DNA of 64,000 bases, taken from positions 1 to 64,000 of IMG/VR virus record IMGVR_UViG_3300001200_000001; one strand, written 5' to 3'. The notes under the pieces are model-generated. The model searched no databases and was not told the DNA's origin. It was given only the letters and a program-made list of their open reading frames with translations. Of this stretch, positions 1,315 through 58,132 are shown one piece after another. The position numbers and the translations under genes were made by a program. The stretch is from a virus. Position 1 is the first letter of the stretch; every line of letters starts with the position of its first letter.

Positions 1315-1770
1315 TTACATCCGCAAGATACCTGAGAGGATCTCAAAGGATTTTGAGTAACGTTGGTTTAATTTATCCCGACGTATATCTGTCATGAAGC
1401 TTTTATCTCCGGTCATATTGACCAGATTATCAGCCCATTTCACTTTTATAGCAGATCGATTACCAGAAGCTACAATCTCCATGATGTTCTCTTCATATGA
1501 GAGAGAAGTGTCTTTGGTCAAAAGCATTACCATTTGATACACAGGAGTACCAAAAGAAGCTTTGATCAGGTCACTATCCATTGGAGTATCTTCAATCACA
1601 TCATGAAGAAGAGCAGCAATTATCTCGTCTTCTGTTGGATCTGGAATAGCTTCTGCTACCGCAAGAGGATGAACAAAGTACGGTAAATTGCCGTACATTT
1701 GTCCTTCATGAGCTATAGTCATGAATTCAAAGGCTTTAGCTACTCGTGGGATTTTTAGGAAGAGTTGCAT
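1315..1770 (-). CDS. HD-domain RelA/SpoT-type hydrolase (small alarmone hydrolase-like)
   Basis: 151 aa. AHEGQMYGNLPYFVHPLAVA ... AALLHDVIEDT ... FG..V..MV..LTK matches the (p)ppGpp-hydrolase HD domain signature (HDxxED). Confidence 0.65.
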   Translation of the reverse strand: MQLFLKIPRVAKAFEFMTIAHEGQMYGNLPYFVHPLAVAEAIPDPTEDEIIAALLHDVIEDTPMDSDLIKASFGTPVYQMVMLLTKDTSLSYEENIMEIVASGNRSAIKVKWADNLVNMTGDKSFMTDIRRDKLNQRYSKSFEILSGILRM

Positions 1771-2035
1771 GATCTAGTTCCGGTTTGTTGAGTACCGCAA
1801 CAACTTCATTACCATCTAAAAGAACAGTATCTCCGAAAGAGTTTGTTGTTACGCTTGTGAAATGTCCGAGACATTCTTTAGAATAATCAGCCATAGATAC
1901 TGGTGTCTCCGAAAGTCCAGAATCTTTGGCCCATTTATCCGCGGCACGTTTTTGAGTATCTGTCCAGCGACGAAGACATCGTGCATTACGACATTCAGTA
2001 GCTGAACAGAAAGTCATATCTTTATAACTGATCAT
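1736..2035 (-). CDS. hypothetical protein, Cys-rich N-terminus
   Basis: 99-aa ORF in the operon; N-terminal FCSATECRNARCLRRW cluster; no family recognised. Confidence 0.55.
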   Translation of the reverse strand: MISYKDMTFCSATECRNARCLRRWTDTQKRAADKWAKDSGLSETPVSMADYSKECLGHFTSVTTNSFGDTVLLDGNEVVAVLNKPELDHATLPKNPTSS

Positions 2036-2044
2036 GAGATTCTC

Positions 2045-2551
2045 CTATGAGCGAGCGGTTACAGGTCGATCTTCTTGGTTCTGGTATTTGCCATCCCCAT
2101 AGTCGCCAGATTCAGTCAGTAAACCAAAGAGAACTTGAGCAATTCCTTGGCCACCAACAATGTTGACTTCTTCGTTACCATGGAACACCAACTCTAATGT
2201 CAGAAATCCATTCCAACCTGGTTCAATGACAGTGTTGAAAACTGACAGTCCTTGGCGAGCCCAGGTTGATTTGTCTTTCACACCGCCAACAAGATTGTTA
2301 GGCATTTGAAATTCTTCGATCGCTGATGCAAGACAAAAACGACCTTGACGGAGGATGCTTTGATTTCTTTCAGTCACCAGAATACCTGGTCCACCTTTCG
2401 GTGTGTTAGGAAAGAAAGAGATGTTTTGTTTTATCCGAATATCATATCCAGCTTCTGCAAGTCCGTGAGATGTTCCTTCAAAACGTTGTTTATCTGTAAA
2501 CATATCTTTTATTGGTGCTGCTTTAAGTAGGCTATTTCCATTGATGAACAT
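2045..2551 (-). CDS. dcd: dCTP deaminase / dUTPase-superfamily enzyme
   Basis: 168 aa. GYDIRI and VIEPGWNGFLTLELV motifs are typical of Dcd. Confidence 0.8.
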   Translation of the reverse strand: MFINGNSLLKAAPIKDMFTDKQRFEGTSHGLAEAGYDIRIKQNISFFPNTPKGGPGILVTERNQSILRQGRFCLASAIEEFQMPNNLVGGVKDKSTWARQGLSVFNTVIEPGWNGFLTLELVFHGNEEVNIVGGQGIAQVLFGLLTESGDYGDGKYQNQEDRPVTARS

Positions 2552-2578
2552 TACACTTTTCCTTTTGTTAGTTTCTTT

Positions 2579-4000
2579 TTACGCCAAGGAGCATCTTTTT
2601 CCCCAATCACCAGCCATAATCGATCCATAAGGTTGAATCTCATCTATAACAGTGGCCAAACCCATTTCATGCATTTGACGTTTCACAGCCGGACCATCTT
2701 TATATGCAGAAGGTAATTCTGTGATATCAATATTACCGGAGAAGAAACGTGCATCAATTCCATTAGTTTCTTTTAAAAAAGTTTCCATGATGAATGACTG
2801 TTCGTTTTTAAGAATGTATTCATCAGTAGCTTTTTCTGCGTAAAACTCATTTCGTAATTGTTTTTGATGCTGTGTTCGAGACACATTACGACCAGCTCCA
2901 TGTGGAGCAAACCCTAAATTAATATCGGTACGGGTTCCTTCAATTAACAATACAGGCTGTGTCATGTTTAATGGGACAATTTGAATACCGTTAGTGTCTG
3001 GAAGAAAATCTTTATGGATTGGTGTGGCTCCTTTAGCATGGTAAAAAAGATCATCAGTGTCACGAAAAACAAAGTTATGTTCATTCCAATGACGTTCTTT
3101 TACTTTAGCTCCGATTAAATCTGCTGCTGCTGTGTGTAAACAAGAATGGTTGGCTTTAGTCCATTTGCGGATTATTTGTAAAGCTTCCCAGTAATTTTCA
3201 CCTTCTTGAGATTCAGCAGGTATCCAGGAATTTTGCTTTAATACGCCTACAGCTAAAGCCCGAGTCATTTTTTCAGCTACTTTCATGCCGTTAACATAAA
3301 GAAGTGCTCCTGGACCACGAGACCCATGATGAGTTACTAAACAAGTATTTCCTTCTTGATTTACACCAACAAAAGCAAAATGATTACCATCCCCTTGAGT
3401 ACCCATGTGCTCAACAGCTAATTGAATAGCTTTGTTGCTTGATAGAAATGGATTTGCTTTCATTGCATCATACATTTTTGGGGATAATGAAAATCTATGA
3501 CCATTTTTTCGGCCTCCTGGACCGAAATGCGTCACTGTTTCTATAGCATCTAGTAAAGCTTTAGGGTTTGTACTCTTAAATTCTGTGACTGCCATAGAGC
3601 AACAAATATCTGCACTATGCATACCAGGGTGTATAGAGCCTTTCGAAGCGATAACTCCACCCACAGGAATAGTACCAATAGGACCTGCAGGACAAGCATC
3701 AGGCATTACAACACCTTTCTGTACAACAGGTGTTTTCATGACTTCTGTCATAGTCTCAATGACTTTACTTTTGTTATGAATTTCTGAATCTGTATTGGCT
3801 TCTAAATTTATAATTAACTGAGGAGAAGATTGTAACTCCATTCGAGGAGCTGGTTTATTTTCGTCAACCCAGGTCTGTAAATTGAAAGGGGTGATACGAG
3901 TTTTTGTAAACTCAAAATTGACAGTTTTTAGGGCTTCACCGAATGCAGGTCCTTCAGGGAAACCTGCATTTAGTAAATCACGACCAGTAAAGTGTGACAT
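2579..4000 (-). CDS. rtcB: RtcB-family RNA 3'-phosphate/5'-OH ligase
   Basis: 473 aa with RtcB metal/GMP-site motifs: DACPAGP, HPGMHSADICCSM, GTQGDGNHFAF, HHGSRGPG, PHGAGR. Confidence 0.9.
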   Translation of the reverse strand: MSHFTGRDLLNAGFPEGPAFGEALKTVNFEFTKTRITPFNLQTWVDENKPAPRMELQSSPQLIINLEANTDSEIHNKSKVIETMTEVMKTPVVQKGVVMPDACPAGPIGTIPVGGVIASKGSIHPGMHSADICCSMAVTEFKSTNPKALLDAIETVTHFGPGGRKNGHRFSLSPKMYDAMKANPFLSSNKAIQLAVEHMGTQGDGNHFAFVGVNQEGNTCLVTHHGSRGPGALLYVNGMKVAEKMTRALAVGVLKQNSWIPAESQEGENYWEALQIIRKWTKANHSCLHTAAADLIGAKVKERHWNEHNFVFRDTDDLFYHAKGATPIHKDFLPDTNGIQIVPLNMTQPVLLIEGTRTDINLGFAPHGAGRNVSRTQHQKQLRNEFYAEKATDEYILKNEQSFIMETFLKETNGIDARFFSGNIDITELPSAYKDGPAVKRQMHEMGLATVIDEIQPYGSIMAGDWGKRCSLA

Positions 4001-4010
4001 GATATTTCCT

Positions 4011-5234
4011 TTATTTATGATCTGGGATCAAATAAACATTTCCATAGAGACCAGATGGAATGTGGTTATTACGATCTGGAATAATCCAAATTGAATCCCA
4101 TTCTGGTTCTTTTGGGATCGTAACACAAAGATCAGTAAAGACCACAAGAGCTTCGGATCCAAGTTCAGCAGTACGTTTATATACTTGTTTCAAGCATGTA
4201 CCACCACCAGCATTCACTTTGATTTTAGTGTATGGTTCTTTGTCTGTGAAAGTTTTTTCCAGAACAATTTTGGTATCAAAAAATAAGACTGTCAATTTCG
4301 CCGGATTCAGTAATTCTTTAATGGTTTTTACTGATTGGTGAAACTGAGTAGCTTGCTTTTGTGAGATCGAACCAGAGACATCTAAAGCGTATGTGAGGTG
4401 CGTCAAACGATTTGCGTGACCTCTTTTAGGGAATCGACCTGGAAGACGCAAAGGAGAGCCTCCTAGCCCGTGTTGACGGCGATTTGGACGCATAAATGTT
4501 CGTTTACCGCCAGACAGCGGATCCACCAAATAGTCTTTAAAGATGTCTTGATAGGTGGCGCCAATGACCAGAATTTTTTGTTGGCTGATTTCTAATGTGA
4601 TACCTGTACTGCCTGTATGAGAACCGGCTTGTTTACCGAGGTTTTCTACATCTTCATCAGCTTTTTGTTTTTGCTGATCAAGAGTAGTGCCTTGGCCTTT
4701 TTGATCGAGAACTTCTTCAATCATTGATTCAATCTGCTCAGCAGATACATAATCATCAGGGATTTGAGGTGGTTTGTTTTTATCAGTCTTTTGGTAGATC
4801 GTATTATAGACCTGTTCAGTTGACTGACCTTTATATTGAGGATCTTTACACGGATCTGTTCCATCAAACGTAAAGCCATCATCTTCTAAAGCGTTGTTAA
4901 TGACGTGATCCGCAGCAATATTATGTTGATACGGATCACACTCTTTACCACGTTCAAGGTGACGAAGAATCAAGTGCCAAACTTCATGTGCAATGACTGT
5001 TTTTCGAGTTTCTTCCGGAATCGAGTCAAAGAAGTCAGGATTGAAGAAGATAAACCCATGGCCAGCACATGCAGTTGGAATCTGTCGAGACCAAAAGATT
5101 TCAATGCTGGCCAAATAACGAGCCATTCCTACGAAACGAGAGTCTTCAAGTGCTTCTTCAACAACTTGTTTTAAAGAAGCAGCTGCCCAGATGTTTTGCT
5201 GAGCAAGTAGTGGTTGTTCATTTGAAAAGCTCAT
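4011..5234 (-). CDS. vWA-domain protein with N-terminal HExxH metallopeptidase-like domain (N4 gp25-like)
   Basis: 407 aa. HEVWHLILRH zincin-like motif in the N-terminus; C-terminal LDVSGSIS MIDAS-like vWA motif; sits next to a MoxR-type ATPase as in N4. Confidence 0.75.
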   Translation of the reverse strand: MSFSNEQPLLAQQNIWAAASLKQVVEEALEDSRFVGMARYLASIEIFWSRQIPTACAGHGFIFFNPDFFDSIPEETRKTVIAHEVWHLILRHLERGKECDPYQHNIAADHVINNALEDDGFTFDGTDPCKDPQYKGQSTEQVYNTIYQKTDKNKPPQIPDDYVSAEQIESMIEEVLDQKGQGTTLDQQKQKADEDVENLGKQAGSHTGSTGITLEISQQKILVIGATYQDIFKDYLVDPLSGGKRTFMRPNRRQHGLGGSPLRLPGRFPKRGHANRLTHLTYALDVSGSISQKQATQFHQSVKTIKELLNPAKLTVLFFDTKIVLEKTFTDKEPYTKIKVNAGGGTCLKQVYKRTAELGSEALVVFTDLCVTIPKEPEWDSIWIIPDRNNHIPSGLYGNVYLIPDHK

Positions 5235-5278
5235 AGCTTATCTCCTAATAAGATCCAAATATATCACATGCGTTTAAC

Positions 5279-6457
5279 TCAAAAGGGAGCCTCTTCCTTA
5301 TCCTCCGGAATCGCAATTTCATCGACTTTCATGCGTTTCTTAATATCAGAAACCAGACGTTGATCGCTTGCAGTGAAGCCAAGCTTCTCAGAAATGATCT
5401 GAGTGAATAATGCACGATGTTCCCCATCGAACCGGTTCATATACTGCATGAGTTTATCACGAGTATCTTCATCAGATTCGATAAAGTAATCAGCAACAGA
5501 CGAAGTCATAGAGGCTTTGCCCATTGTAGTACCAGGAATACGAGTAGAACCCGGACTTTGAGCTGCATCCCATGGATATGGCAACTGCATTGTTTCATCG
5601 TAGTGTTCTTTAAACGCTACGGCTGCCATAGAGCCTACCGCGGCAGTCATCAGATTCAGAGATGCTTGTGTTAGCGGAGTACCGGATGGTGCTTGATCTT
5701 CTGGAATAGGAATTCCAGCTGCATCACGAGGTTTTTTGTTTGAAGCTTTAGCTTCTTTCTCATGACGATTGACAATTTTGAAGACCTTACCCCAACCACG
5801 AGGAGTGGCGTAAGTTTCGAGTTCTTCACGTTTGTCGGCTGGGACAGTGCCCAACAGCATGTCTCTGTATTTTTCGATAAACTCAATTACAGTTTCATTC
5901 GCATTGGTTTCAGGCTCACGAGCCCAACGTATCCAATCAGCTGAACTCACTTTCATTGAGATAGGAAGCATACGAGTAATCAATGTATCTGGAAGAGGGC
6001 GTGCGATTGCAGAATCTTCTGAACGGTTGCCGGCACCGACAATCAATGCTTTTGGGTGAACTTTTTTACCGCCTACACGGTGTCCCAGAAGCAGAGAATA
6101 AATTGCTGCCATAACTTCTTCAGTTGCAGAAGAAAGTTCGTCCAAGAAAATCAGCCAACCTTCCATTGGATCCCCATCTTGATCTAACGGAAGGCTATCA
6201 CCTTCCATAGGGAATGTGTCGAAAGGTGTGTAAGTTGCTTTCATAGTTTTAGGATCGATTTGAGGCAATCCTGTAAGGTCTTCTGGCAACATTTGGCTTA
6301 GACGAATGTCCAAAAGTTTGAGGTTAAATTCATCAGCCACTTGAGCGATGATGTCAGATTTGCCGATACCTGGTGCGCCAGAGAGATATGGAATCTCACC
6401 GATTTTCAGAGCATCGACTACAAAAGCTTTCGCTTTGCGAGGTGTAAGCTGTTTCAT
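5279..6457 (-). CDS. MoxR-like AAA+ ATPase (N4 gp24-like)
   Basis: 392 aa. Walker A GAPGIGKSD and Walker B LIFLDELSS; paired with the vWA gene. Confidence 0.8.
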   Translation of the reverse strand: MKQLTPRKAKAFVVDALKIGEIPYLSGAPGIGKSDIIAQVADEFNLKLLDIRLSQMLPEDLTGLPQIDPKTMKATYTPFDTFPMEGDSLPLDQDGDPMEGWLIFLDELSSATEEVMAAIYSLLLGHRVGGKKVHPKALIVGAGNRSEDSAIARPLPDTLITRMLPISMKVSSADWIRWAREPETNANETVIEFIEKYRDMLLGTVPADKREELETYATPRGWGKVFKIVNRHEKEAKASNKKPRDAAGIPIPEDQAPSGTPLTQASLNLMTAAVGSMAAVAFKEHYDETMQLPYPWDAAQSPGSTRIPGTTMGKASMTSSVADYFIESDEDTRDKLMQYMNRFDGEHRALFTQIISEKLGFTASDQRLVSDIKKRMKVDEIAIPEDKEEAPF

Positions 6458-6786: not shown

Positions 6787-7965
6787 TTAAGCCAAGAGAT
6801 AGTTGCCTTGCAAGATCGTGTTACGATCAATTTTGCCAACTTTCCGGGTATTAAGAGTACGACCTGTTACTTGGGAAGCCATTGATTTCAACAACTTAGA
6901 GTCATTAATATCTGCCAAAATGGTATTGTACTGCAGACGTAGAGCGTTGCCGTAGTTTGGGTGACAACGGAAACAATCATGTACTGAGACCAATTCAAAA
7001 GGCTCTTCAGGAAGAGTTTTGATCAGCTGAGCAATGACCAATGGGTCTACGATACCCATCGTATCCTTATACAAGAAGTCCAGAATACGAACTGACAGGA
7101 AACCGGTTTCTTTGTAATGATCCCAGAGTTCTTTGACTTTGCCGGCTGAACGTCCAGTTGTGCCAGTATCATTCAAGTTGTTGATGACTCGAGTGATAAC
7201 GTTCTTATCGAACATACAACGACGGAACATCTCTCGTACCACCATCCCATCAATTGAGTGGATAAGGTTTGGACCTAGACCTTTGTGGAAGTCAGGACGC
7301 TCATTTACCTTCACTGGAACGGCAAATTCTTCATTCAAGAATTTGAAAGAAACCAGTTCACTCTTTTGAGTTTCGATGCAGGCATGGAAGTTGTCTGGCA
7401 TCACCCAATCATACGTTGAACCAGGGATTTCATCCCAAAGTTCTTGTAGGCTTAGGTTAAGATCCCATGCACCTGGCGCCATAGTTTCCATGGTTTCATA
7501 GAACATGTCGACGTTATCACCAAAGGTAAGCTCTGGCATGGCTACTGAACCATACAGAGATGTCATGATGGCGGCTTTTACTTCTTTACGAGTTAAGGCA
7601 CCATGAAGTTTCATGGAATCGTAAATCTCGACATAGCTGTCTACACATCGAGTTGATACGCCACCGCAAAGGTTCCAGCTGGTAGGACATGAAACCAATA
7701 GAGATAGGATCTGTAGACCAGAAGAACATGCATCCAAGGAAATCATGTATCCGGATGGCTTGCCGGCAACTGTGTCGAGGTAGGCTTGTACAGCAGCACG
7801 TAAACCAATCGAATCGGATGCTTTGCTGAATGTTTTATCATCAGTGAGGTCGAGCGTATCGAAATGTTCAATACGTTCATCCCAAGTTGCTTTTTCAAAT
7901 GCTTTATCGTTTTTGCATGCGATTTCAGCTTTTAGGTATTGAAGTCCGGTGAGTTCTTGAAGCAT
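6787..7965 (-). CDS. T7-like RNA polymerase II, catalytic (large) subunit (N4 gp16-like)
   Basis: 392 aa. LDACSSGLQILS matches T7 motif A (DGSCSGIQ). TRKEVKAAIMTSLYGS matches motif B. VHDCFRC matches motif C (HDSFG). Confidence 0.85.
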   Translation of the reverse strand: MLQELTGLQYLKAEIACKNDKAFEKATWDERIEHFDTLDLTDDKTFSKASDSIGLRAAVQAYLDTVAGKPSGYMISLDACSSGLQILSLLVSCPTSWNLCGGVSTRCVDSYVEIYDSMKLHGALTRKEVKAAIMTSLYGSVAMPELTFGDNVDMFYETMETMAPGAWDLNLSLQELWDEIPGSTYDWVMPDNFHACIETQKSELVSFKFLNEEFAVPVKVNERPDFHKGLGPNLIHSIDGMVVREMFRRCMFDKNVITRVINNLNDTGTTGRSAGKVKELWDHYKETGFLSVRILDFLYKDTMGIVDPLVIAQLIKTLPEEPFELVSVHDCFRCHPNYGNALRLQYNTILADINDSKLLKSMASQVTGRTLNTRKVGKIDRNTILQGNYLLA

Positions 7966-13009: not shown

Positions 13010-13087
13010 AGCGGGATGGAGAAGTCTGGTCAACTCGTCTGGTTCATATTCAGAAGATCGTGGGTTCAAATCCCACTCTCGCAACCA
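13010..13087 (+). tRNA. tRNA with CAU anticodon (Met, initiator-like or Ile2)
   Basis: Hand fold: acceptor AGCGGGA/TCTCGCA with an A1-A72 mismatch; D stem GAG/CTC; anticodon stem TCTGG/TCAGA; loop TTCATAT; T arm GTGGG-TTCAAAT-CCCAC; encoded ACCA. Confidence 0.7.
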
Positions 13088-13163
13088 AAGGATTTGAGAT
13101 GCTATCTACTCTCACAATAATTGTTATTATCTGGCTTTGCTGGAAGTGGTCCAAAACCATTTA

Positions 13164-13239
13164 GCCGTTATAGCTCAACAGGTAGAGCGCCTCACTTGTA
13201 ATGAGGATGTCCGGGGTTCAATCCCTCGTGGCGGCACCA
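13164..13239 (+). tRNA. tRNA-Thr(UGU)
   Basis: Canonical 76-nt cloverleaf: GCCGTTA/TGGCGGC acceptor, TAGCTCAACAGGTAGAGC D arm, anticodon loop CTTGTAA, T arm CGGGG-TTCAATC-CCTCG, encoded CCA. Confidence 0.9.
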
Positions 13240-13244
13240 CTTCA

Positions 13245-13454
13245 TTAATGGATTGTTGGGTGATCGTAGTCTTCTACTGGAATGGTAAATTTATTGTCAT
13301 GTAGGTGAGGACAAGGCCCAACCACATAAACACCAAAACCTTCCTCCATCACTTGGCGTGATGGAACAATGATATCATCACCAAATAATGCGTATTTGTG
13401 TTCTGCATTGATAAACATAAGAACGTTTGGGGCTGTGTGAGGTTTCTTTGGCAT
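13245..13454 (-). CDS. hypothetical small protein
   Basis: 69-aa ORF with an AAGGAA SD 7 nt upstream. It converges on the tRNA-Thr 3' end, 5 nt away. Confidence 0.55.
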   Translation of the reverse strand: MPKKPHTAPNVLMFINAEHKYALFGDDIIVPSRQVMEEGFGVYVVGPCPHLHDNKFTIPVEDYDHPTIH

Positions 13455-13567
13455 TTTATGTTCCTTACTGTTGACTATGAAAGTTGTACTCGATAAGAAG
13501 CCTGCATGGAACAGTTTATCTCATCATCTTGGCTCAGCCTCAGTTATCTATCCTTATCGTAAGATAA

Positions 13568-13653
13568 GGGGAGGCTCTCCTATTGGTGAAGGTCGGAGAC
13601 TGTAAATCTCTCGGATAATTCCTGTTTTGGTTCGAATCCAAATCTCCCCACCA
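13568..13653 (+). tRNA. tRNA-Tyr(GUA), class II (long variable arm)
   Basis: Acceptor GGGGAGG/TCTCCCC; anticodon stem GGAGA/TCTCT; loop CTGTAAA; T arm TTTGG-TTCGAAT-CCAAA; encoded ACCA. The D-stem pairing is irregular. Confidence 0.75.
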
Positions 13654-13678
13654 TCATAATACCTGAAATCATATTCGT

Positions 13679-13761
13679 GCGGATGTGGTGGAATTGGTAG
13701 ACACTTCGGTTTTAGAAACCGGTGCTTCGGCGTGAGAGTTCGAGTCTCTTCATCCGTACCA
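13679..13761 (+). tRNA. tRNA-Leu(UAG), class II
   Basis: GCGGATG/CATCCGT acceptor (G1-U72); Leu-typical D arm GTGGAATTGGTAGACAC; anticodon stem TCGGT/ACCGG; loop TTTAGAA; T arm GAGAG-TTCGAGT-CTCTT; encoded CCA. Confidence 0.85.
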
Positions 13762-13799
13762 ATATGATTTCATAAAAACCAAAAAAGAAAGGTCAACAT

Positions 13800-13874
13800 G
13801 CCGGTATAGTTCAATGCGTAGAATAGTGGCTTCCAAACCCAAAGATCTGAGTTCGATTCTTAGTGCCGGTGCCA
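13800..13874 (+). tRNA. tRNA-Trp(CCA), non-canonical anticodon stem
   Basis: Acceptor GCCGGTA/TGCCGGT; T arm CTGAG-TTCGATT-CTTAG; anticodon loop TTCCAAA; encoded GCCA. Only 3 of 5 anticodon-stem pairs form (G27-A43 and C31-C39 mismatch). The D loop AATGCGTA lacks a contiguous GG. Confidence 0.55.
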
Positions 13875-13884
13875 ATTTAAATAT

Positions 13885-13972
13885 GGAAGATAATGCAGGG
13901 ATGGTCTCTGTCGCTGATTGCTAATCAGAGGGAACCGCAAGGTTTGGGGATCGTTACCTCTTTCTTCCGCCA
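13885..13972 (+). tRNA. tRNA-like sequence, possibly class II tRNA-Ser(GCU); doubtful
   Basis: Acceptor GGAAGA/TCTTCC (6 bp) with encoded GCCA; anticodon-like stem CTGA/TCAG with loop TTGCTAA. The T loop is ATCGTTA (A54/T58 swapped) and the D-arm register is unclear. Confidence 0.3.
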
Positions 13973-13979
13973 CCGATAC

Positions 13980-14064
13980 GGAGGGTGGTGCTCATGGGAG
14001 CAAGCTGTTTTGAATGCAGTCGCTGACCGAGAGGTTAAGGGTTCGATTCCTTCACCATCCGCCA
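13980..14064 (+). tRNA. tRNA-Ser(UGA), class II
   Basis: Acceptor GGAGGGT/ACCATCC (one G-A mismatch); D stem TGCT/AGCA; anticodon stem GCTGT/GCAGT; loop TTTGAAT; variable arm TCG-ctgac-CGA; T loop TTCGATT; encoded GCCA. Confidence 0.6.
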
Positions 14065-14195
14065 AATCAGTAAAGTTACTGGTTTACTAGTTGAAATCTG
14101 GGACCAACACCACAACTCTAGGCTGGGAATAGCTGCTGAACCGATACACAGAAATTCGCCTCCATACGGCGACTCTTATGGTGATCCAGGTTATT

Positions 14196-14271
14196 TGGAT
14201 GGTGCAGTAGGATTCGAACCTACGACTTCCGCAGTCCAAGTGCGGCACTCTTCCAACTGAGCTATACCCTG
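14196..14271 (-). tRNA. tRNA-Pro(UGG)-like; canonical arms but unpaired acceptor stem (possible pseudo-tRNA)
   Basis: Minus strand, 76 nt: D arm TAGCTCAGTTGGAAGAGT; anticodon arm CCGCA-CTTGGAC-TGCGG; T arm GTAGG-TTCGAAT-CCTAC; 3' TGCACCA-T-CCA. The 5' strand CAGGGTA pairs at only 4 of 7 positions. Confidence 0.5.
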
Positions 14272-51822: not shown

Positions 51823-52332
51823 TCAGATGAGACCCATGCTTTTGTTTGTTTTGGCGAATTTTCCATGTATTTTGATAGCCATCTTGTCATAAGCTTTGGC
51901 TGCAAATTCAGAAGAAGTAAATACACCTAAGTTCATGTTCTTTTTTAAAACAGGATCCCAGATACGAGCTCTCCATTGAGAATTGTGTTTCGAAACCCCT
52001 TTTAATTTACTTGTTGAATCCGAGCGTACAACACGAGAACAACAGTTTTCTTGATGAGAAGATTCTCTTAAATTTACTATTCGATCGTCATCACGAATAC
52101 CGTTAATATGATCAATAGTTTGAGCCGGCCAAATTCCATGAGTTAGAAACCAAGCCACATGTGAAGCTTGGTAGATTTTGTTTTGAAACTTAATTTGTCG
52201 ATAACCATCTAAGTTTATAGAACCAGCAACCGAAGCCGCTGGTATTTTTGGAGTTGGAGATTTGATCCATTCAATCTTTCCTGATGATGGATCATAAGAG
52301 AGATATTGTTTAAACTGGTTTAGCGTCGTCAT
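51823..52332 (-). mobile_element. free-standing HNH endonuclease with AP2 DNA-binding domain (homing endonuclease)
   Basis: 169 aa. HNH_3-type DHINGIRDDDRIVNLRESSHQEN, followed by the AP2-like GVSKHNSQWRARIWDPVLKKNMNLGVFTSSEFAAKAYDKMAIKIHG. Confidence 0.8.
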
Positions 52333-53311
52333 GGAAATATTCCTTTCTTTGGGAACATATAGACCATACAGGACAGTATGTACATGCCTTGACTTGTCCG
52401 GGTTCTCTCACAATAACCCCTTTGGCTTTTTCCTTTATATGAAGTTGGGCATCTACATCAGAATCAAACCGTTTTGTACAACGGCCGCCTTTCTTAGCAG
52501 TCTCAGGGTTGGAGTAGTATTTAAAAGAATCCGCCTGGCGCCACAGCTCTTTGTCTGTACAGCGTACCATTTGGTCTTGTGATCGACCTGCATTCTTACG
52601 AATATTGGCCAGTTTGTCGTGAATCCACTCTTCAGTCTCTTTAATAGACATCAAAGGATATTCTTTGTGGGTCACACGAGTTTGAGGGTATTTAGGATCA
52701 GCTTTAGCACGATACTTTGCCCAATCAGTAAAGATGAATTCGATACGCATTGTATCGTCTTTAATGAGTTCAGGCATAATCCACCGGTACATTGAACCTT
52801 GAAGGATATAATCCTGGTCTTTGCTCCCACTGGTATAAGAGTAGGTCGATGTGGACTTGAAGTCCCGATAAGCTTGGCCAATCAAAAAGTCTAGCTGTCC
52901 TGTGATGACAACATCTTCAAATTCTTTGAAGCCACGCTTTTCCAAATAAATTGGAATATCATCATCTTTCAGAGTTTTTGGATCAGGATTGATCTTAATG
53001 CGATCGATGATCTTCTGAGGATAGTGTAATTGACGCATAGCTTTTTGCCAATTACCTTCTGTCCAAGCCCGTTCGATAGAATCGTGAAGACCATGTCCCA
53101 TACGAGCAGCAACCATTTCGGATACATCCATAGTTTCAGCTGCCATGTCGACTTTACGTTTTAAGATCAACTGTCGTGTTGGTTTCATGAGAGTTGTGAC
53201 CGAGATTAACTCACCTGGAGGAGCTTCAGAAGCACCTGAGTTGTAGCCGTCTTGAAGAAGCCAAACAGCAAGAGGTAAGTCAATTTTATGGTCATTGGTA
53301 ATTTTTACCAT
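52310..53311 (-). CDS. PD-(D/E)XK nuclease with C-terminal Cys cluster (Cas4/RecB-like exonuclease; N4 gp42 position)
   Basis: 333 aa. GQLDFLIGQAYRDFKS is a D...(D/E)xK core. The C-terminus carries C..(n)..C-TYC-PVWSIC cysteines. Confidence 0.6.
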   Translation of the reverse strand: MVKITNDHKIDLPLAVWLLQDGYNSGASEAPPGELISVTTLMKPTRQLILKRKVDMAAETMDVSEMVAARMGHGLHDSIERAWTEGNWQKAMRQLHYPQKIIDRIKINPDPKTLKDDDIPIYLEKRGFKEFEDVVITGQLDFLIGQAYRDFKSTSTYSYTSGSKDQDYILQGSMYRWIMPELIKDDTMRIEFIFTDWAKYRAKADPKYPQTRVTHKEYPLMSIKETEEWIHDKLANIRKNAGRSQDQMVRCTDKELWRQADSFKYYSNPETAKKGGRCTKRFDSDVDAQLHIKEKAKGVIVREPGQVKACTYCPVWSICSQRKEYFHDDAKPV

Positions 53312-53385
53312 GATACGGTCCTTTCGTAGGATATTGTTCTAAGAATATCCTTATTTGTGGTAGAATATTCTACAAACCAAGGAAA

Positions 53386-54132
53386 TTAGGAATCTAATTC
53401 TTCGAGATGTTTCAGGATCAAATCTTTTACGATTGTCTCATCAGCATCGTTTGGGATATCAAATCCATGGTTCCAATCAGGATGGAATATTTCCAATTTA
53501 CCTGACATGTCGATGTGTTCATTCTGGATTAAAGGATCTTCTTGCCAACGAACAGCTTGTGACAAGTGTTTGTTTACATACAATAATGTTCGCATATCAT
53601 CTTTAATCAGATAATATTGAGCATCATGGATATGAGCACATGGTTTCACATTCAATCGATGAGGGCTTTTACGAACTTTACCCATAAATTCTGAAGCTGC
53701 TCGGTTATTCAACATACACCAGGATTGTCCTAATGCATTGCCGGCAGTTCGTCCTTCAGAAGCTGCTTCATGAGGTGTTTTGCTTGTTCCCAGAATAACT
53801 TGTTTCAGCAATGGAGTGCGAAGACGCAATCCAAATGCAATAACCACATAGCCCAGTTTAGAAGCTTCTTCGATTCGAGCCTGACTCCATTCATCTGAAA
53901 CTTTATATAGCTCATGGTAGTTGGCTTCGATCGATTTAGCCACCTCTTCACTCAAACCAACGTTTTTCATTAATGTCACATACGTGCCATCATAAGTAAG
54001 AGCAAAAGTAGGAACCTTACTGTCTTGACGTAGGCTTTTGTAGAGTTTGGAAATGGAGTTCACCCTCACAACATTATGCTGTGAGGGTTTCACTTCTTTT
54101 ACTGATGTGATTTCATCATCAATGACCAGCAT
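53386..54132 (-). CDS. DNA polymerase I family, C-terminal fragment (motifs B and C)
   Basis: LRQDSKVPTFALTYDGTY matches motif B (R..aK...F...YG). CAHIHDAQYY matches motif C (HDE). The track ORF begins at TTG 54273, but that extension overlaps a better small ORF. ATG 54132 (MLVIDDEITSV...) is the first plausible start, though the exact start remains uncertain. Confidence 0.8.
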   Translation of the reverse strand: MLVIDDEITSVKEVKPSQHNVVRVNSISKLYKSLRQDSKVPTFALTYDGTYVTLMKNVGLSEEVAKSIEANYHELYKVSDEWSQARIEEASKLGYVVIAFGLRLRTPLLKQVILGTSKTPHEAASEGRTAGNALGQSWCMLNNRAASEFMGKVRKSPHRLNVKPCAHIHDAQYYLIKDDMRTLLYVNKHLSQAVRWQEDPLIQNEHIDMSGKLEIFHPDWNHGFDIPNDADETIVKDLILKHLEELDS

Positions 54133-54280
54133 GGAACGTGACCCCATTGATAGCTGATTCCCGTTGCCAATCAGGAGCATTATCCCAAGATGGTTGAGAG
54201 TTGTCTCCATTTTCTGCACACCAAACACGATTAGCTTCATGAGCGATTCGTGCTGTTGCTGTGATAATATCAATATCCAT
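54119..54280 (-). CDS. small ORF (53 aa), AHEANR-motif family, apparently truncated
   Basis: Below the track cutoff. Manual translation gives MDIDIITATARIAHEANRVWCAENGDNSQPSWDNAPDWQRESAINGVTFHAGH. AGAGG SD 8 nt upstream, and the ORF starts 2 nt after the previous stop. Confidence 0.5.
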   Translation of the reverse strand: MDIDIITATARIAHEANRVWCAENGDNSQPSWDNAPDWQRESAINGVTFHAGH

Positions 54281-54282
54281 TG

Positions 54283-54501
54283 TTATACCTCTGTCTGATC
54301 ATCAGCACGTAGATCAGCCTTCACTTGATGGTACAGAATCAGATCTGTATTTAAAATTGTCAGACCTTCATCTGACCATAGACGCAGCCAAGACCCTGAA
54401 GGATCAAAAGCAGTGACATTGTGCAGATCTAAACGTTGACCATCTCGAAATACAATTTGCCGGCGCTTTTCCTGGACTTTTACTTGTTGAGATTTTGCCA
54501 T
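54283..54501 (-). CDS. hypothetical protein inside the polymerase split
   Basis: 72-aa ORF with its own TAAGGA SD. It starts 9 nt after the polymerase N-fragment stop. Confidence 0.6.
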   Translation of the reverse strand: MAKSQQVKVQEKRRQIVFRDGQRLDLHNVTAFDPSGSWLRLWSDEGLTILNTDLILYHQVKADLRADDQTEV

Positions 54502-54510
54502 GTGGTTTCC

Positions 54511-56583
54511 TTACTTATTAAGTTTGTCGAACAGTTCCTGACCAGTCATGGGCTGTCCTTGATAAGTGATTTGCTCTTCCGAATGGAAATAGACTGGTTC
54601 ACCATTGATAATTGCTTCGTAGGCAACTGCACCCTCAGGACACAATTCAATATCCGGCATCTGATCACCAAAGTACGCCAAAGCCCTAAGGCAGTGTCCG
54701 TCATAGCCATCAGAATACACTTTGATTTTCTCTGGGTCGCGGGTTGTAACCGCAGAAATTTTATCTTCAAGAGAATCAAAGTCGAGCCCTATAAATAACC
54801 ATCCAGGAGGTGCTTCAAAACATTCCTTAATGAGTTTCGCAAGTCTTTTTTTGACCTTACTAGACCCAGAAGATGGGATATTCTGTAGGTTGGGGTTGTT
54901 AGACGAAAGTCTACCAGATGCAGTACCACCTAATCGAAAATTACCAAACAAATAGTGCCATCCGTCATTGCCTTTTTGTGCTTTTAAGAAAGCAGGGAGA
55001 AAGGTTGATAGGATGATCGCAGATGCTTTGTACTCGATTAGTATCCCAAGAAAGGACGTAACGTCCGGATCATTTGTATGGGATAAAAGCTTCTCCAAAG
55101 TATCAGCTCCCGTTGCTGGAAGCTTTGAGTCGGTATAATCTAATACCGGTAAACCAAGAAAATCTTCAGAATATAGAAGTCTCTGAAGCTGTGGAGCACT
55201 GTTGGGGTTAAACTCAACTTTGCCTGGAGGTATGTCACTAACTGTGATTACTTTTTTCTTGTACTCGGAGTTTTTCTTCACAACATATTCGTCACGAAGA
55301 GTATCCAAAAATCCTTGAACAGTTTGCATGTTCAGCATGCGCTGCTCTAAGGCATTAGATTCAGCCTGCAATTTTTTGTTGAGACGTTTTACTTTCCACA
55401 TATTGATAGGCATACCAGATAGTTGCATCTGTATGATGTCCATCACTGCAGGGACAAAGATGTCATTGTAAACACCCATTTGCTGATCAGCAATCGCAAT
55501 TGGTAGGTTCTTTTTGTACACGTACCAAGTGCTCAATCCATCAACGAGGTTATATTCAAGAAGATCATCCATTGGTATCAATCGAATGTCTTTAATATCT
55601 TCTTGAGCATAATTACCGGCATATTCTTGAGCTTGAACTTTCAAACCCAACTCATTGCCGGCACAGGAGTTTGTCGCCAGATATGTGATTAACTGAGAAC
55701 AATCCCAGTTTCGTAGAAGTACATTTAATCCTTCCAGAAGGCCATCCTGATCAAGGATATGATCCATGAACAGTTGATAAACCAAGACGTAAACATCATA
55801 ACAGATGTTGTGATAAATCATCTTGTTTTTGAAAGCATAAAAAAAGGTTTTCAATGCTGCTCGAATCTCGTGATTTGGAACACATTTACCTACCAGGTTT
55901 CCATCTTGTTCTTCCAGGGATTCGTAATCCACAGGGAAAGCAATACCTTCAGTCTCGCTCCAACAGAATGTGATTGTACCGATCCCGGCGTCATAGTGTT
56001 TAAGGCCGAAGCCTTCAATATCACATGTAAGATCACAATCCATCTCATACAATTTGTCCAACCACTCGAGGATTTCCTCATTGGTTTTAAGGTAGGCAGC
56101 GTATTTGATGATATTGGCGCCTACAGCTGAAGTATCTCCATCGGCCCAACGAAAGACAGCATCCATTGCAAGTTTGATTTTTGCTTTGGTTTTGTCTGGA
56201 TCATAGAATATCCGAGAGTAGTTAGGACAATATGTTGCAAGCAATTCATCACCTAAAACAGTTGATACAACGTCTCCGATAGTAGCATCTGTCTTGGATT
56301 TCTTAGTCAGAACTTTGAAGTAATCTGGTTGAGTTACAACCACCATCTTAATTCCCGCATCAATCAGATTAGGGAGCAAATCGTTCAAATATTCTTTGAT
56401 TTGAGCTGCAGATGTTTTCTTTTTAGTTCCATCAATGAAGAGATCACAGACCATTATATCTTCCCCTAAACCAGCCAGGTAAGGATCATAGTAATGTTTC
56501 TCAATCTCTCCTTTTTGGATTCGAGGACAGAGGATCGCAATTGTTGGATCCACTTTATTACGGCCAATGATTTCATATTTCAT
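54511..56583 (-). CDS. DNA polymerase I family, N-terminal fragment (3'-5' exonuclease plus palm motif A)
   Basis: Start moved to ATG 56583 (ATGA overlap with the upstream ORF). Exo I is LTCDIEGFGL and motif A is FIGLDFDSLEDKIS. It continues through HCLRALAYFGDQMPDIE, then has 43 unrelated residues and a TAA stop. Confidence 0.85.
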   Translation of the reverse strand: MKYEIIGRNKVDPTIAILCPRIQKGEIEKHYYDPYLAGLGEDIMVCDLFIDGTKKKTSAAQIKEYLNDLLPNLIDAGIKMVVVTQPDYFKVLTKKSKTDATIGDVVSTVLGDELLATYCPNYSRIFYDPDKTKAKIKLAMDAVFRWADGDTSAVGANIIKYAAYLKTNEEILEWLDKLYEMDCDLTCDIEGFGLKHYDAGIGTITFCWSETEGIAFPVDYESLEEQDGNLVGKCVPNHEIRAALKTFFYAFKNKMIYHNICYDVYVLVYQLFMDHILDQDGLLEGLNVLLRNWDCSQLITYLATNSCAGNELGLKVQAQEYAGNYAQEDIKDIRLIPMDDLLEYNLVDGLSTWYVYKKNLPIAIADQQMGVYNDIFVPAVMDIIQMQLSGMPINMWKVKRLNKKLQAESNALEQRMLNMQTVQGFLDTLRDEYVVKKNSEYKKKVITVSDIPPGKVEFNPNSAPQLQRLLYSEDFLGLPVLDYTDSKLPATGADTLEKLLSHTNDPDVTSFLGILIEYKASAIILSTFLPAFLKAQKGNDGWHYLFGNFRLGGTASGRLSSNNPNLQNIPSSGSSKVKKRLAKLIKECFEAPPGWLFIGLDFDSLEDKISAVTTRDPEKIKVYSDGYDGHCLRALAYFGDQMPDIELCPEGAVAYEAIINGEPVYFHSEEQITYQGQPMTGQELFDKLNK

Positions 56584-56837
56584 GATAAAAGCCTCACATT
56601 CTTGAAACGATTGATGTATCGGTAAGTTTTCCCAACCCATTGAGATATTGCTTCCATGGATTGGGATTTTACTTCCAAATATGGGTGACAAGCAGGATTT
56701 CCATCGAAAGACTCTAAATCAACAGAAGTCCCGGCCCACTTAAAAGCTTTTGTTTTGATCTTTTCTAAATCATCCCAAGAAGCTTCAAAATCAATTCTAC
56801 AAGAGTAGTAACGTTCGATTTTGTTTAGTGGGGTCAT
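56580..56837 (-). CDS. hypothetical protein
   Basis: 85-aa ORF, translationally coupled on both sides (ATGA overlaps). Confidence 0.55.
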   Translation of the reverse strand: MTPLNKIERYYSCRIDFEASWDDLEKIKTKAFKWAGTSVDLESFDGNPACHPYLEVKSQSMEAISQWVGKTYRYINRFKNVRLLS

Positions 56838-58132
56838 TTGAAATACCTTTCAGGTAAAGTTCCACGGATAAAGATCCGTTGTTTGGGGCGCGATAGTGCC
56901 ACATATTGCATGCGAGCTGTCTGCTCTTCATTTGTACATGTCCCAATATCTGCCAAGTCTACGATCACAGAGTTGTACGTAGATCCTTGTGCTTTATGAG
57001 TTGTCGATGCAGCAACTGCACGAAGATCCGGATAACCGTTTTTGATACGGAAATACCGGTCCCATACTTTGTTCGATGCGTAGTAGTTCAATACTTCACG
57101 TCGATCAGAAGAGTTCGGGAAACAGGTCACACTGTATGGCACACCTGAACCAAGATCTTCAAGTTCCAAATCAATCACCCGGATATTATGTCCTTTGACA
57201 ATATTTGGATCTTCTCGATCGGAAACCACTTTGGTGACACGTACCAATTGATCAGTATAAAGACGAATCTTTCCTGTCAGTTCGGCTGATTCATTGTTTG
57301 AGAGAATCTCACCAACAGCGAATGGGTCTGTATAACCGCGGAGTTCACGAATAAACTCATTGTATTGAACAACACGTTTATTGGTGTAACAAAGAACTCG
57401 TTTACCCTCATCTTCTTGGTTGTATTCACGTTCCAAAATTCCGCGGAGAGTGGTGTTGTCAACAAAATCAATCACACCAGGAACTTCTTTGATAGGCGTA
57501 AATATACCAGTCAAAACTGTTTGTTTGGCTTGTTCACAAAGAGCCATCAAAGCAGGCTGTTCAGCATTTCGAACTGGCTTAGTTAGATGTGCTGTTGAAT
57601 AGTTGTTTTGATAGATCGGAGACAGTGTTTCTTTGACTGGAGCCAGCTGGTTACGATCACCAACAAACAAAACCTTACAAGTCTTATCCAGACCTTTGGC
57701 TAGATATTTGAAGAGTTCTTTGTTGATCATTGAGCACTCGTCGATAATCAAGAAAATTCCAGAATGGACTGTCCAATTCCGAGTTGGAACGACAGATACC
57801 GTACCATTACTGAAATTCTCATTGAGACGGAGATTCATGAAACTGTAAACAGTTCCAATCTCTAGTGCTCGATGAGGCATGGCTTCTGCAATTACCGCGG
57901 CAGCCTTATTGGTCGTTGCTGTAATAGCAACTGTATGGAGAGGATTTCCAGACTTCTTATGTCGTAGAATTCCATCCGCTACCTGTGAAATGAAATAAGT
58001 TTTACCGGTCCCAGCACCACCTGATACATCCATGAATTGTTCGTTTGGATCATTCATGAATTTGATCACGCTCATAAAAGCGGCTTGTTGTTCTTTATTG
58101 AGACCCATGGTTTCAATCCTTTGAATGTGCAA
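56834..58132 (-). CDS. Dda/RecD-like SF1 DNA helicase (N4 gp37-like)
   Basis: 432 aa. Walker A GGAGTGKT; Walker B LIIDECSM; C-terminal STTHKAQGSTYNSVIVD ... YVALSRPKQRIFI. Confidence 0.85.
   Translation of the reverse strand: MHIQRIETMGLNKEQQAAFMSVIKFMNDPNEQFMDVSGGAGTGKTYFISQVADGILRHKKSGNPLHTVAITATTNKAAAVIAEAMPHRALEIGTVYSFMNLRLNENFSNGTVSVVPTRNWTVHSGIFLIIDECSMINKELFKYLAKGLDKTCKVLFVGDRNQLAPVKETLSPIYQNNYSTAHLTKPVRNAEQPALMALCEQAKQTVLTGIFTPIKEVPGVIDFVDNTTLRGILEREYNQEDEGKRVLCYTNKRVVQYNEFIRELRGYTDPFAVGEILSNNESAELTGKIRLYTDQLVRVTKVVSDREDPNIVKGHNIRVIDLELEDLGSGVPYSVTCFPNSSDRREVLNYYASNKVWDRYFRIKNGYPDLRAVAASTTHKAQGSTYNSVIVDLADIGTCTNEEQTARMQYVALSRPKQRIFIRGTLPERYFK

Follow-up and report, generated by a model that had tools for sequence, protein, structure and literature searches.

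The closest described counterpart of the gene arrangement considered here is the MobA element of phage T4 (gene 39/mobA/gene 60), in which an essential replication gene is likewise split and an HNH endonuclease gene lies between a C-terminal extension (CTE) of ~43-44 amino acids (aa) on the upstream half and an extension at the N-terminus (NTE) of the downstream half. The MobA element of T4-like phages was reportedly described by Bonocora et al. in 2011, and the MobE-split nrdA of Aeromonas phage Aeh1 is said to have been described by Friedrich et al. in 2007. The present analysis concerns a family A DNA polymerase (PolA) gene that is divided into two open reading frames (ORFs) carrying extensions of this kind, on the minus strand of the IMG/VR record IMGVR_UViG_3300001200_000001, of which a stretch of 64,000 nt (the window) was analyzed. 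MobA elements are exclusive to Topo2L, always combine a CTE of ~44 aa with an NTE, occur sporadically among near-identical phages, can lose the endonuclease while the tails are kept, and have been considered as perhaps a general alternative to introns and inteins (Manning and Atkins 2022, bioRxiv 10.1101/2022.08.31.505936). The C-terminus of T4 gp39 and the N-terminus of gp60 form a pendant domain of ~70 aa, which is a probable assembly chaperone (PMC11461880).

In the MobE-split nrdA of phage Aeh1, an HNH endonuclease also splits an essential gene, and the halves with their short CTE and NTE form an active enzyme (PMC2677866); the enzyme, site, and tails differ from those of the PolA split, and the two are likened by description only. 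Split family B polymerases, such as the Aeh1-type gp43A/43B and PolB of M. thermautotrophicus, also consist of two polypeptides without splicing, and an engineered fingertip split of Pfu polymerase indicates that a break near the fingertip is tolerated (PMC3061061), but these enzymes belong to family B, not family A, and no conserved clasp tails have been reported for them. A preliminary description of the locus invoked Aeh1 gene 43A/43B, which is apt in spirit, although the closest analogue is the T4 gene 39/mobA/gene 60 cassette. Within family A, the S-SBP1-like polymerases of T7-like phages are likewise encoded by two genes (Czernecki et al. 2023, PMC10201439). In contrast to the window, where the split lies within the polymerase domain and one active site is drawn from two chains, the S-SBP1-like split parts the exonuclease from the polymerase domain, and this domain boundary is the only position at which a PolA split is recorded in the papers searched (PMC10201439). 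N4-like PolAs are described as single chains of 800-900 aa (PMC10201439), and a literature search returned no report of a fingers-domain split in an N4-like PolA. Fractured genes (Dassa et al. 2009, PMC2677866), which are common in marine metagenomes and in replication genes, show the same order of an N part with a tail, an endonuclease, and a head with a C part, but their tails are ligating Hint-domain halves, whereas the polymerase tails have no intein motifs and are too short.

A family A polymerase divided at the fingertip

The two ORFs of the window polymerase encode an N fragment of 690 aa and a C fragment of 248 aa and are 378 nt apart. The Pfam DNA_pol_A profile (PF00476) breaks cleanly between them, the N fragment matching positions 28-198 and the C fragment positions 199-304. 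The split site is the fingertip loop between motif A and motif B; one chain thus carries motif A, and its partner carries motifs B and C. In terms of Pol I structure, this junction corresponds to the loop between fingers helices N and O. Intact relatives read MPDID-PDSVES-INSI across the junction, while the N fragment of the window continues for 44 residues beyond MPDIE (43 in the earlier count) and the C fragment has 20 extra residues ahead of VVRVNSIS. The exonuclease motifs DIEGF, YHNICYD, and YNLVDGL are kept in the N fragment, as are the polymerase motifs LDFDSLED, RQDSKVPTFALTYDG, and HIHDAQYY across the two fragments, and all of the ORFs, motifs, and coordinates of the preliminary description were found again.

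Over its full length, the N fragment shares 51-65% identity with Schitoviridae polymerases. Among cultured phages, N4-like roseophages (Schitoviridae, Rhodovirinae) are nearest, with ~64% identity and a single polymerase gene of ~870 aa, and the N and C fragments are 64.6% and 60.7% identical, respectively, to the polymerase of Roseobacter phage RD-1410W1-01. The window polymerase departs from the single polypeptide of 800-900 aa that characterizes N4 gp39-like PolA, which makes up cluster 17 in PMC10201439. N4 and most isolates conform to the view that an N4-type polymerase is one polypeptide; exceptions are a large uncultured clade and the cultured Klebsiella phage Pylas. No nearly identical DNA to the window was present in the phage collection.

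Stand-alone proteins of 194-334 aa (most ~250 aa; 57-91% identity) make up all of the best 120 matches to the C fragment, and many of them are encoded on ~70-kb contigs; the best 120 matches to the N fragment are mostly 683-700 aa long. The split is present in >100 protein clusters and in 106 of the 127 N-side sequences analyzed. An interrupted essential gene in a metagenome-like sequence could stem from a faulty assembly or a false indel, or could mark a defective genome whose polymerase is dead. However, a cultured phage and independent assemblies from ENA, JGI, Logan, Tara, and IMG/VR share the same architecture, and the catalytic motifs are intact. The preliminary description had also allowed for pseudogenized copies beside an intact polymerase, but no second PolA copy exists in the 64-kb window and both halves are under strong purifying selection (omega 0.02-0.08). 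Relative to the closest relative used for this estimate, locus L045 (C fragment 91% identical), the ratio of nonsynonymous to synonymous substitution rates (dN/dS, omega) is 0.075 for the N body, 0.083 for the CTE, 0.16 for the NTE, and 0.022 for the C body, with synonymous sites close to saturation. An artefact or a pseudogene is extremely improbable.

A group I (or II) intron would leave a single polymerase after RNA splicing, as the GenBank record of phage Pylas assumes. Phage PolA genes often contain group I introns carrying HNH genes, Acinetobacter phage nACB1 (L089, OQ032511) has a group I intron in motif B with a related HNH, and the ORFs of variable size between the polymerase halves resemble intron loop ORFs. 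However, an Rfam scan, which detected both halves of the nACB1 intron as a positive control (E=3e-7 and 4e-4), found no intron, even with lenient cutoffs, in the window (53000-57000 at E<=10; whole window at gathering thresholds), Pylas, L055, or L065. Furthermore, among 27 loci, the N stop and the C start are separated by 9 nt to 2.2 kb, and the length of this gap modulo 3 is 0, 1, and 2 in 14, 6, and 7 loci, respectively; with gap lengths in all three classes, RNA splicing could not restore the reading frame. The smallest inserts (~205 nt) are wholly coding, and the tail and NTE are conserved as protein while synonymous change is saturated. In L006 and L045, the C fragment starts with its own ATG at 9-12 nt past the N stop, with an intervening Shine-Dalgarno (SD) sequence. 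Splicing is, on these grounds, very improbable.

Because the split is clade-wide, both halves are under purifying selection, the motifs are intact, the gaps break the frame, no intron was detected, and the C fragment has its own SD sequence and ATG, the sequence comparisons indicate that the polymerase is genuinely made as two chains and that this is a trait of a large clade rather than a lesion. The proposal of a two-polypeptide polymerase, as opposed to an artefact, a spliced gene, or a pseudogene, is thereby upheld. As part of the overall account given below, and with a probability shared with it, the sole DNA polymerase of the window phage is likely to be a working two-subunit enzyme.

Conserved extensions and a boundary hairpin

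The CTE (consensus ELxPxGAxxYKAxVGGxxxYFHSEEEIEYLGxxMTGxELFxLLNK) is found in all split members, is conserved in >100 split polymerases, and is 43-44 aa long. The NTE (consensus MLK[IF]xxPxxxxxxVSPSEH[ND]) has an equal length of 20 aa in 75 of 94 homologues. In AlphaFold models of an artificial fusion of the window's own fragments, with the same result for constructs of 387 and 69 aa, the CTE is predicted as four strands and a helix (predicted local distance difference test, pLDDT, 86-91), and the NTE contributes a further strand to the CTE domain (pLDDT 70-79). This prediction supports the formation of one small beta/alpha domain from CTE and NTE, a clasp that probably holds the polymerase halves together. 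The 43 residues that had been described as having no polymerase look are instead a conserved module (omega 0.083) that is confidently folded by AlphaFold, as expected of a segment with its own function.

Gene fission without a mobile element could also be considered, in which helix O was duplicated in tandem and complementary decay left the tail as a degenerate copy. Tblastn and MAFFT place the tail co-linear with the motif B segment (ITYQGQPMT versus LTYQGTYMT), and the other break of the three-piece polymerases described below has a duplicated KLIKECFE/KLKQCFE. In contrast, the hhalign alignment of the tail with the helix-O segment covers 7 columns and is not significant (P=0.09), while the tail matches MobA CTEs far better (P=7e-6). 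The same tail type is also found at a different site (KVY), the distribution is patchy, and the junctions are clean in 89%-identical pairs. Fission of this kind is therefore unlikely.

The boundary between the NTE and the polymerase sequence is occupied by a hairpin at 54062-54088. The preliminary description placed it correctly where polymerase homology resumes but counted 9 bp; in the minimum free energy structure, the hairpin has a 12-bp stem and a 3-nt loop. The loop lies on the His-Asn codons that close the NTE, and the first codons of polymerase homology (V-x-R-V) contain the 3' arm. A 10-13-bp stem with a 3-nt loop is present at this boundary in nearly all split loci, with stem sequences that differ and a register that is sometimes off by 1 nt. 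Since the stem register shifts between loci, a fixed-register covariation count was dropped, and the hairpin was tested by synonymous-codon randomization. The boundary window had a mean z of -4.2 in 25 related split loci (76% of loci below -2), compared with mean z values of 0 to -0.7 for nine other C-fragment windows and -0.5 for the same site in 12 intact polymerases. A CTE-coding window (~54556-54597, 84-42 nt before the N stop) had a mean z of -2.2, with 55% of 20 loci below -2. These values indicate that the boundary hairpin is selected at the nucleic-acid level, and the hairpin probably accounts for the "SEHN" conservation. By analogy with the T4 bypass insert, which shields the inserted allele from MobA (bioRxiv 10.1101/2022.08.31.505936), the hairpin may give immunity to the endonuclease, and a role at the mRNA level may be envisaged equally well.

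The hairpin also bears on a (degenerate) split intein, in which the halves would be trans-spliced or, as in a fractured gene, held by intein-derived halves. The order of N-extein with tail, endonuclease, and extended C-extein mirrors that of fractured genes (PMC2677866), the tail often begins with Cys or Ala, the NTE ends with His-Asn, and true split inteins occur elsewhere in these polymerases (P0143/P0144). Against this, the 43+20 (63) residues amount to approximately half of a minimal Hint fold, a split intein being ~130 aa. The tail can start with C, A, or L, Val occupies the +1 position, and searches of PDB sequences and Pfam and with Foldseek gave no intein or Hint match. The conservation of His-Asn is probably explained by the nucleic-acid hairpin, whose loop these codons form. 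An intein is accordingly a highly improbable explanation. P0143 and P0144 (147 aa) start with a bona fide C-intein (VYDLEIAEDHCYLANDIYVHN followed by SNPNLQNIP), a true split intein at another polymerase site, and end after MPEV/MPDI in a third tail type (GQTYKVVYSDGSVEYLNE...).

Cargo, insertion sites, and resident endonucleases

The gap of the window locus contains two genes, ORF72 and ORF53, whereas the halves of L045 are 12 nt apart with an empty gap. In L058, which is 97% identical to the window in nucleotide sequence over both halves, the gap is filled by one gene for a protein of 209 aa with Pfam RyR and Acb2_Tad1_hairpin domains; homology between the window and L058 ends precisely at the stop codon of the N fragment and at the ATG of the C fragment, and the cargo is the sole difference. 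ORF53 shares 80% identity with residues 1-51 of the 209-aa product, and the remainder is missing; because the match covers only the 5' part of the L058 gene, ORF53 is a truncated remnant. It matches phrog_18865 (E=1e-13) and has no Pfam match. Membership of ORF53 among the Acb2/Tad1-type sponge proteins was rejected, since the Acb2_Tad1_hairpin domain comprises residues 129-189 of the L058 homologue, outside the part equivalent to ORF53. ORF72 belongs to phrog_28185; a homologue is located at an unrelated locus in RD-1410W1-01 (53% identity), others occur in Rhizobium phages, and the homologues are free-standing and distant from the polymerase gene.

ORF72 and ORF53 lie between the halves with their own SD sites, and ORF53 overlaps the start of the C fragment, an arrangement that would suit dedicated assembly or regulatory partners of the split polymerase, as the preliminary description suggested. 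However, both are absent from L045 and replaced in L058, ORF53 is a fragment, ORF72 homologues are far from the polymerase gene, and neither ORF is present in any of ~40 other split loci, so that a partner function can hardly be credited. Likewise, the term "two-ORF insert" is valid as a description of the window genome but not as the cause of the split. Over the ~40 split loci, the gap is empty or contains Tad2-like genes (11 loci or more), Acb2/Tad1-hairpin genes (five loci or more), or other types, including class II ribonucleotide reductase genes, NUMOD4/HNH_3 endonuclease genes, and small ORFs without assignment. The gap, with its variable cargo, now probably acts as a slot that is swapped by recombination at its exact borders. 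The class II (B12-dependent) ribonucleotide reductase genes (648/664 aa) are found in the 2.0-2.2-kb slots of L070 and L072 from IMG/VR.

Homing elements are recognized by a sporadic occurrence, exact junctions, the use of multiple sites, and resident endonucleases. In a tree based on 635 shared N-terminal columns, split and intact polymerase genes are interleaved. The intact P0240 shares 89% aa identity with the split P0162, to which it is closer than to any other intact gene, and the nearest neighbor of the polymerase of the cultured intact phage vB_SupP_AX is a split gene. P0162 and P0035, 89% identical to P0240 overall, match it at 93-100% on either side as far as the junction, and the aligned sequences thus show a clean gain or loss.

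A second split site, between KVY and TDGYDGH, is used in L055 and Klebsiella phage Pylas, which have an HNH gene in the gap and a CTE of the same type (MGHxVYEVxINGxxHHIRDDxTIxYDGKTYTGEEFY). The GenBank entry of Pylas (L088, MH899585, locus 1583-4863) joins the polymerase parts and labels the HNH an intron; the N part ends in a CTE and a stop codon, and its sequence suggests that this cultured phage probably has a misannotated two-subunit polymerase. Four mini-pieces of 87-92 aa (P0287, P0289, P0291, and P0310) combine an NTE-like start and a CTE with ~23 aa of polymerase (GYDGH...MPDIE) between them, which indicates that some genes are cut at two sites, KVY and MPDIE, and that the tails at these sites are of the same types.

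One NUMOD4/HNH_3 endonuclease family occupies the slot of L055, L059, L064, L065, L081, and Pylas and is also represented at a motif A site in L023/L025 and within the intron of nACB1. In L023/L025 from IMG/VR, a NUMOD4+HNH_3 gene (4051-4584) lies just before motif A, and the C piece from 4857 starts with MGSDFSSLED; this is a third insertion site of the slot endonuclease family. At the nACB1 locus (3337-4139), the break is in motif B (PTFA and a stop ... MGTW), the intron HNH is 53% identical to the slot HNH of L065, and separate "DNA polymerase" coding sequences are annotated. The HNH gene of the window itself (51823-52332) was rejected as the driver, as it is unrelated to the slot HNH family; L009 and L046 have a homologue of it at another location.

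Other interruptions were also observed. In L056/L057 (JGI 3300009074, ENA ERZ909335), the polymerase is in three pieces of 620+148+249 aa (genes 3671-5533, 6001-6447, and 7095-7844), with a 161-aa ORF without a Pfam match between pieces 1 and 2. Three-piece polymerases are present on at least 24 contigs, and their extra break, between LIKECFEAPP and GW, has helical tails and a partly duplicated KLIKECFE/KLKQCFE. L017/L018 from IMG/VR have an interruption of ~540 nt between N-fragment residues 501 and 512 of an otherwise intact-type polymerase, which could be an intein, an intron, or a cassette.

The features of the window locus are listed in Table 1. The ATG of the C fragment is 11 nt upstream of the ORF53 TGA; the two ORFs therefore overlap by 14 nt, and coupling of C-fragment translation to ORF53 by reinitiation, as proposed previously, is plausible for the window genome. 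A sigma-70 promoter and terminator scan of the region gave nothing above shuffled expectation. Elsewhere in the window, six clustered tRNA genes (Met, Thr, Tyr, Leu, Trp, and Ser) are located at 13010-14267 on the plus strand, and Rfam gives a tRNA-like match at 14204-14267 on the minus strand that has no ARAGORN counterpart.

Table 1. Features of the split polymerase locus and its neighbors in the window
Feature	Position	Strand	Remarks
PIF1/UvrD-type helicase gene	56834-58132	-	
85-aa ORF	between helicase gene and 690-aa ORF	-	
PolA N fragment, 690 aa	ATG 56583 to TAA 54511	-	exonuclease motif CDIEGFGL, motif A LDFDSLEDK
PolA N fragment body, residues 1-646	54646..56583	-	UDG-like N-terminal region, 3'-5' exonuclease, thumb, motif A, fingers helices to FGDQMPDIE
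CTE (tail) of N fragment, residues 647-690	54514..54645	-	LCPEGAVAYEAIINGEPVYFHSEEQITYQGQPMTGQELFDKLNK
TAA stop of N fragment, then AAGGAAA, SD-like sequence serving ORF72	stop 54511..54513	-	assigned from sequence
ORF72, cargo gene, 72 aa	54283..54501	-	
ORF53, 53 aa	54119..54280	-	truncated 5' remnant of RyR + Acb2/Tad1-hairpin-type gene
PolA C fragment, 248 aa	ATG 54132 to 53386	-	motif B RQDSKVPTFALTYDG, motif C HIHDAQYY
NTE of C fragment, residues 1-20	54073..54132	-	MLVIDDEITSVKEVKPSQHN; ATG 54132 upstream of ORF53 stop
Hairpin at NTE/polymerase boundary	54062..54088	-	loop TAA on His-Asn codons
PolA C fragment body	53386..54072	-	helix O/motif B, remaining fingers, motif C, C-terminal palm
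N4 gp42-like exonuclease gene	52310-53311	-	
HNH_3 endonuclease gene (phrog_99)	51823-52332	-	overlaps 3' end of gp42-like exonuclease gene

Possible relationship to MobA and proposed origin of the split

The polymerase tails were compared with those of the T4 cassette by profile, shuffling, and fold searches. In hhalign, the tail profile matched the C-terminus of T4 gp39 with P=2.7e-4 and the combined CTEs of T4 and Proteus phage SJ_PmiM with P=7.1e-6 (probability 84%), over 39 co-linear columns ending at the C-termini. The tail and NTE of the window, aligned with the CTE and NTE of T4, reached a score of 61 versus 24+-4 for shuffled sequences, and none of 2000 shuffles reached 61. A Foldseek search of 350,542 PDB chains with the CTE and NTE model returned the T4 topoisomerase II central domain (8yo3_C) as the best match; this enzyme is the one that the MobA cassette divides into gp39 and gp60. 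A BFVD fold search gave nothing significant. Overall, homology between the polymerase and MobA tails is favored, if by a modest degree of belief, while a functional analogy between them appears quite likely. The likeness extends to the sporadic occurrence beside uninserted close relatives, the loss of the endonuclease while the tails stay, and the formation, predicted for the polymerase, of a small domain by CTE and NTE. In contrast to MobA, which targets Topo2L in the Straboviridae, the polymerase cassette is found in a family A polymerase of the Schitoviridae, uses at least two insertion sites in one gene, and has a slot colonized by diverse cargo.

A possible origin of the split was proposed from these comparisons. 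A homing-endonuclease cassette of the T4 gene 39/mobA/gene 60 type would have entered the fingertip loop that joins helices N and O. With it, the upstream half would have gained an in-frame CTE and a stop codon, and the downstream half a ribosome-binding site, a start codon, and the NTE, while an endonuclease gene came to lie between the two. The two extensions could then co-fold into a beta/alpha clasp domain off the fingertip, which may help the halves to find and hold each other, so that the essential gene would survive without RNA or protein splicing. In the window lineage, the endonuclease would have been lost, and the slot now holds ORF72 and a truncated gene of the RyR/Acb2-Tad1 type. 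Taken as a whole, this account of a polymerase split by a cassette with clasp tails, whose gap then became a cargo slot, is considered likely.

Several observations weigh against it. The closest pair of split and intact polymerases is 89% aa identical, compared with 96-99% DNA identity for MobA, so that the change may have gone in either direction and need not be recent. The slot of the window contains no endonuclease gene, so mobility is inferred from relatives. The AlphaFold models are of an artificial fusion with a shallow NTE alignment, and the rest of the larger model is poor. In a HMMER search of 1.84 billion proteins, the tail profile matched PolA N fragments only, always at the extreme C-terminus, which leaves the T4 comparison as the sole argument for portability beyond PolA. 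Within that comparison, the 8yo3_C match is weak (E=0.35; probability 0.87, TM 0.55), shuffle tests with the T4 CTE give p<=0.0125 for only six of 11 tails, and the similarity of the NTE to the N-terminus of T4 gp60, taken alone, is not significant. The slot HNH family (NUMOD4+HNH_3) is unrelated to MobA, and the NTE is 20 aa rather than 44-45 aa long. T4 has a 50-nt translational bypass, whereas the C-fragment ORF is continuous through the hairpin, which is translated at the equivalent boundary. More tentatively, and on balance doubtfully, the CTE and NTE might be a portable clasp carried by different homing endonucleases, namely MobA in the topoisomerase genes of T4-like phages and NUMOD4/HNH_3 enzymes at two or more sites in the polymerase genes of N4-like phages, with the hairpin as an immunity or expression device and the slot as an anti-defence hotspot in a replication operon.

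The assembly of one family A active site from two chains cut at the fingertip would be unusual enzymology. In the papers found, cassettes with a CTE and NTE are described only from topoisomerase and ribonucleotide reductase genes, and the polymerase would add a new gene, phage family, and form. The arrangement is widespread in uncultured marine-type N4-like phages and is also present in the cultured, tractable Klebsiella phage Pylas. Tad2-like and Acb2/Tad1-like genes recur in the slot, which makes it a convenient site in which to seek new anti-defence genes, and the selected hairpin offers a handle on how such cassettes protect or express themselves. The small clasp might also find use as a split-protein tag of natural origin. 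Should the polymerase tails be related to the T4 MobA tails, gene splitting with clasp peptides would be a general and modular strategy of homing endonucleases, and if the clasp is indeed portable, it would represent a third general solution, besides introns and inteins, for the residence of selfish DNA in essential genes.

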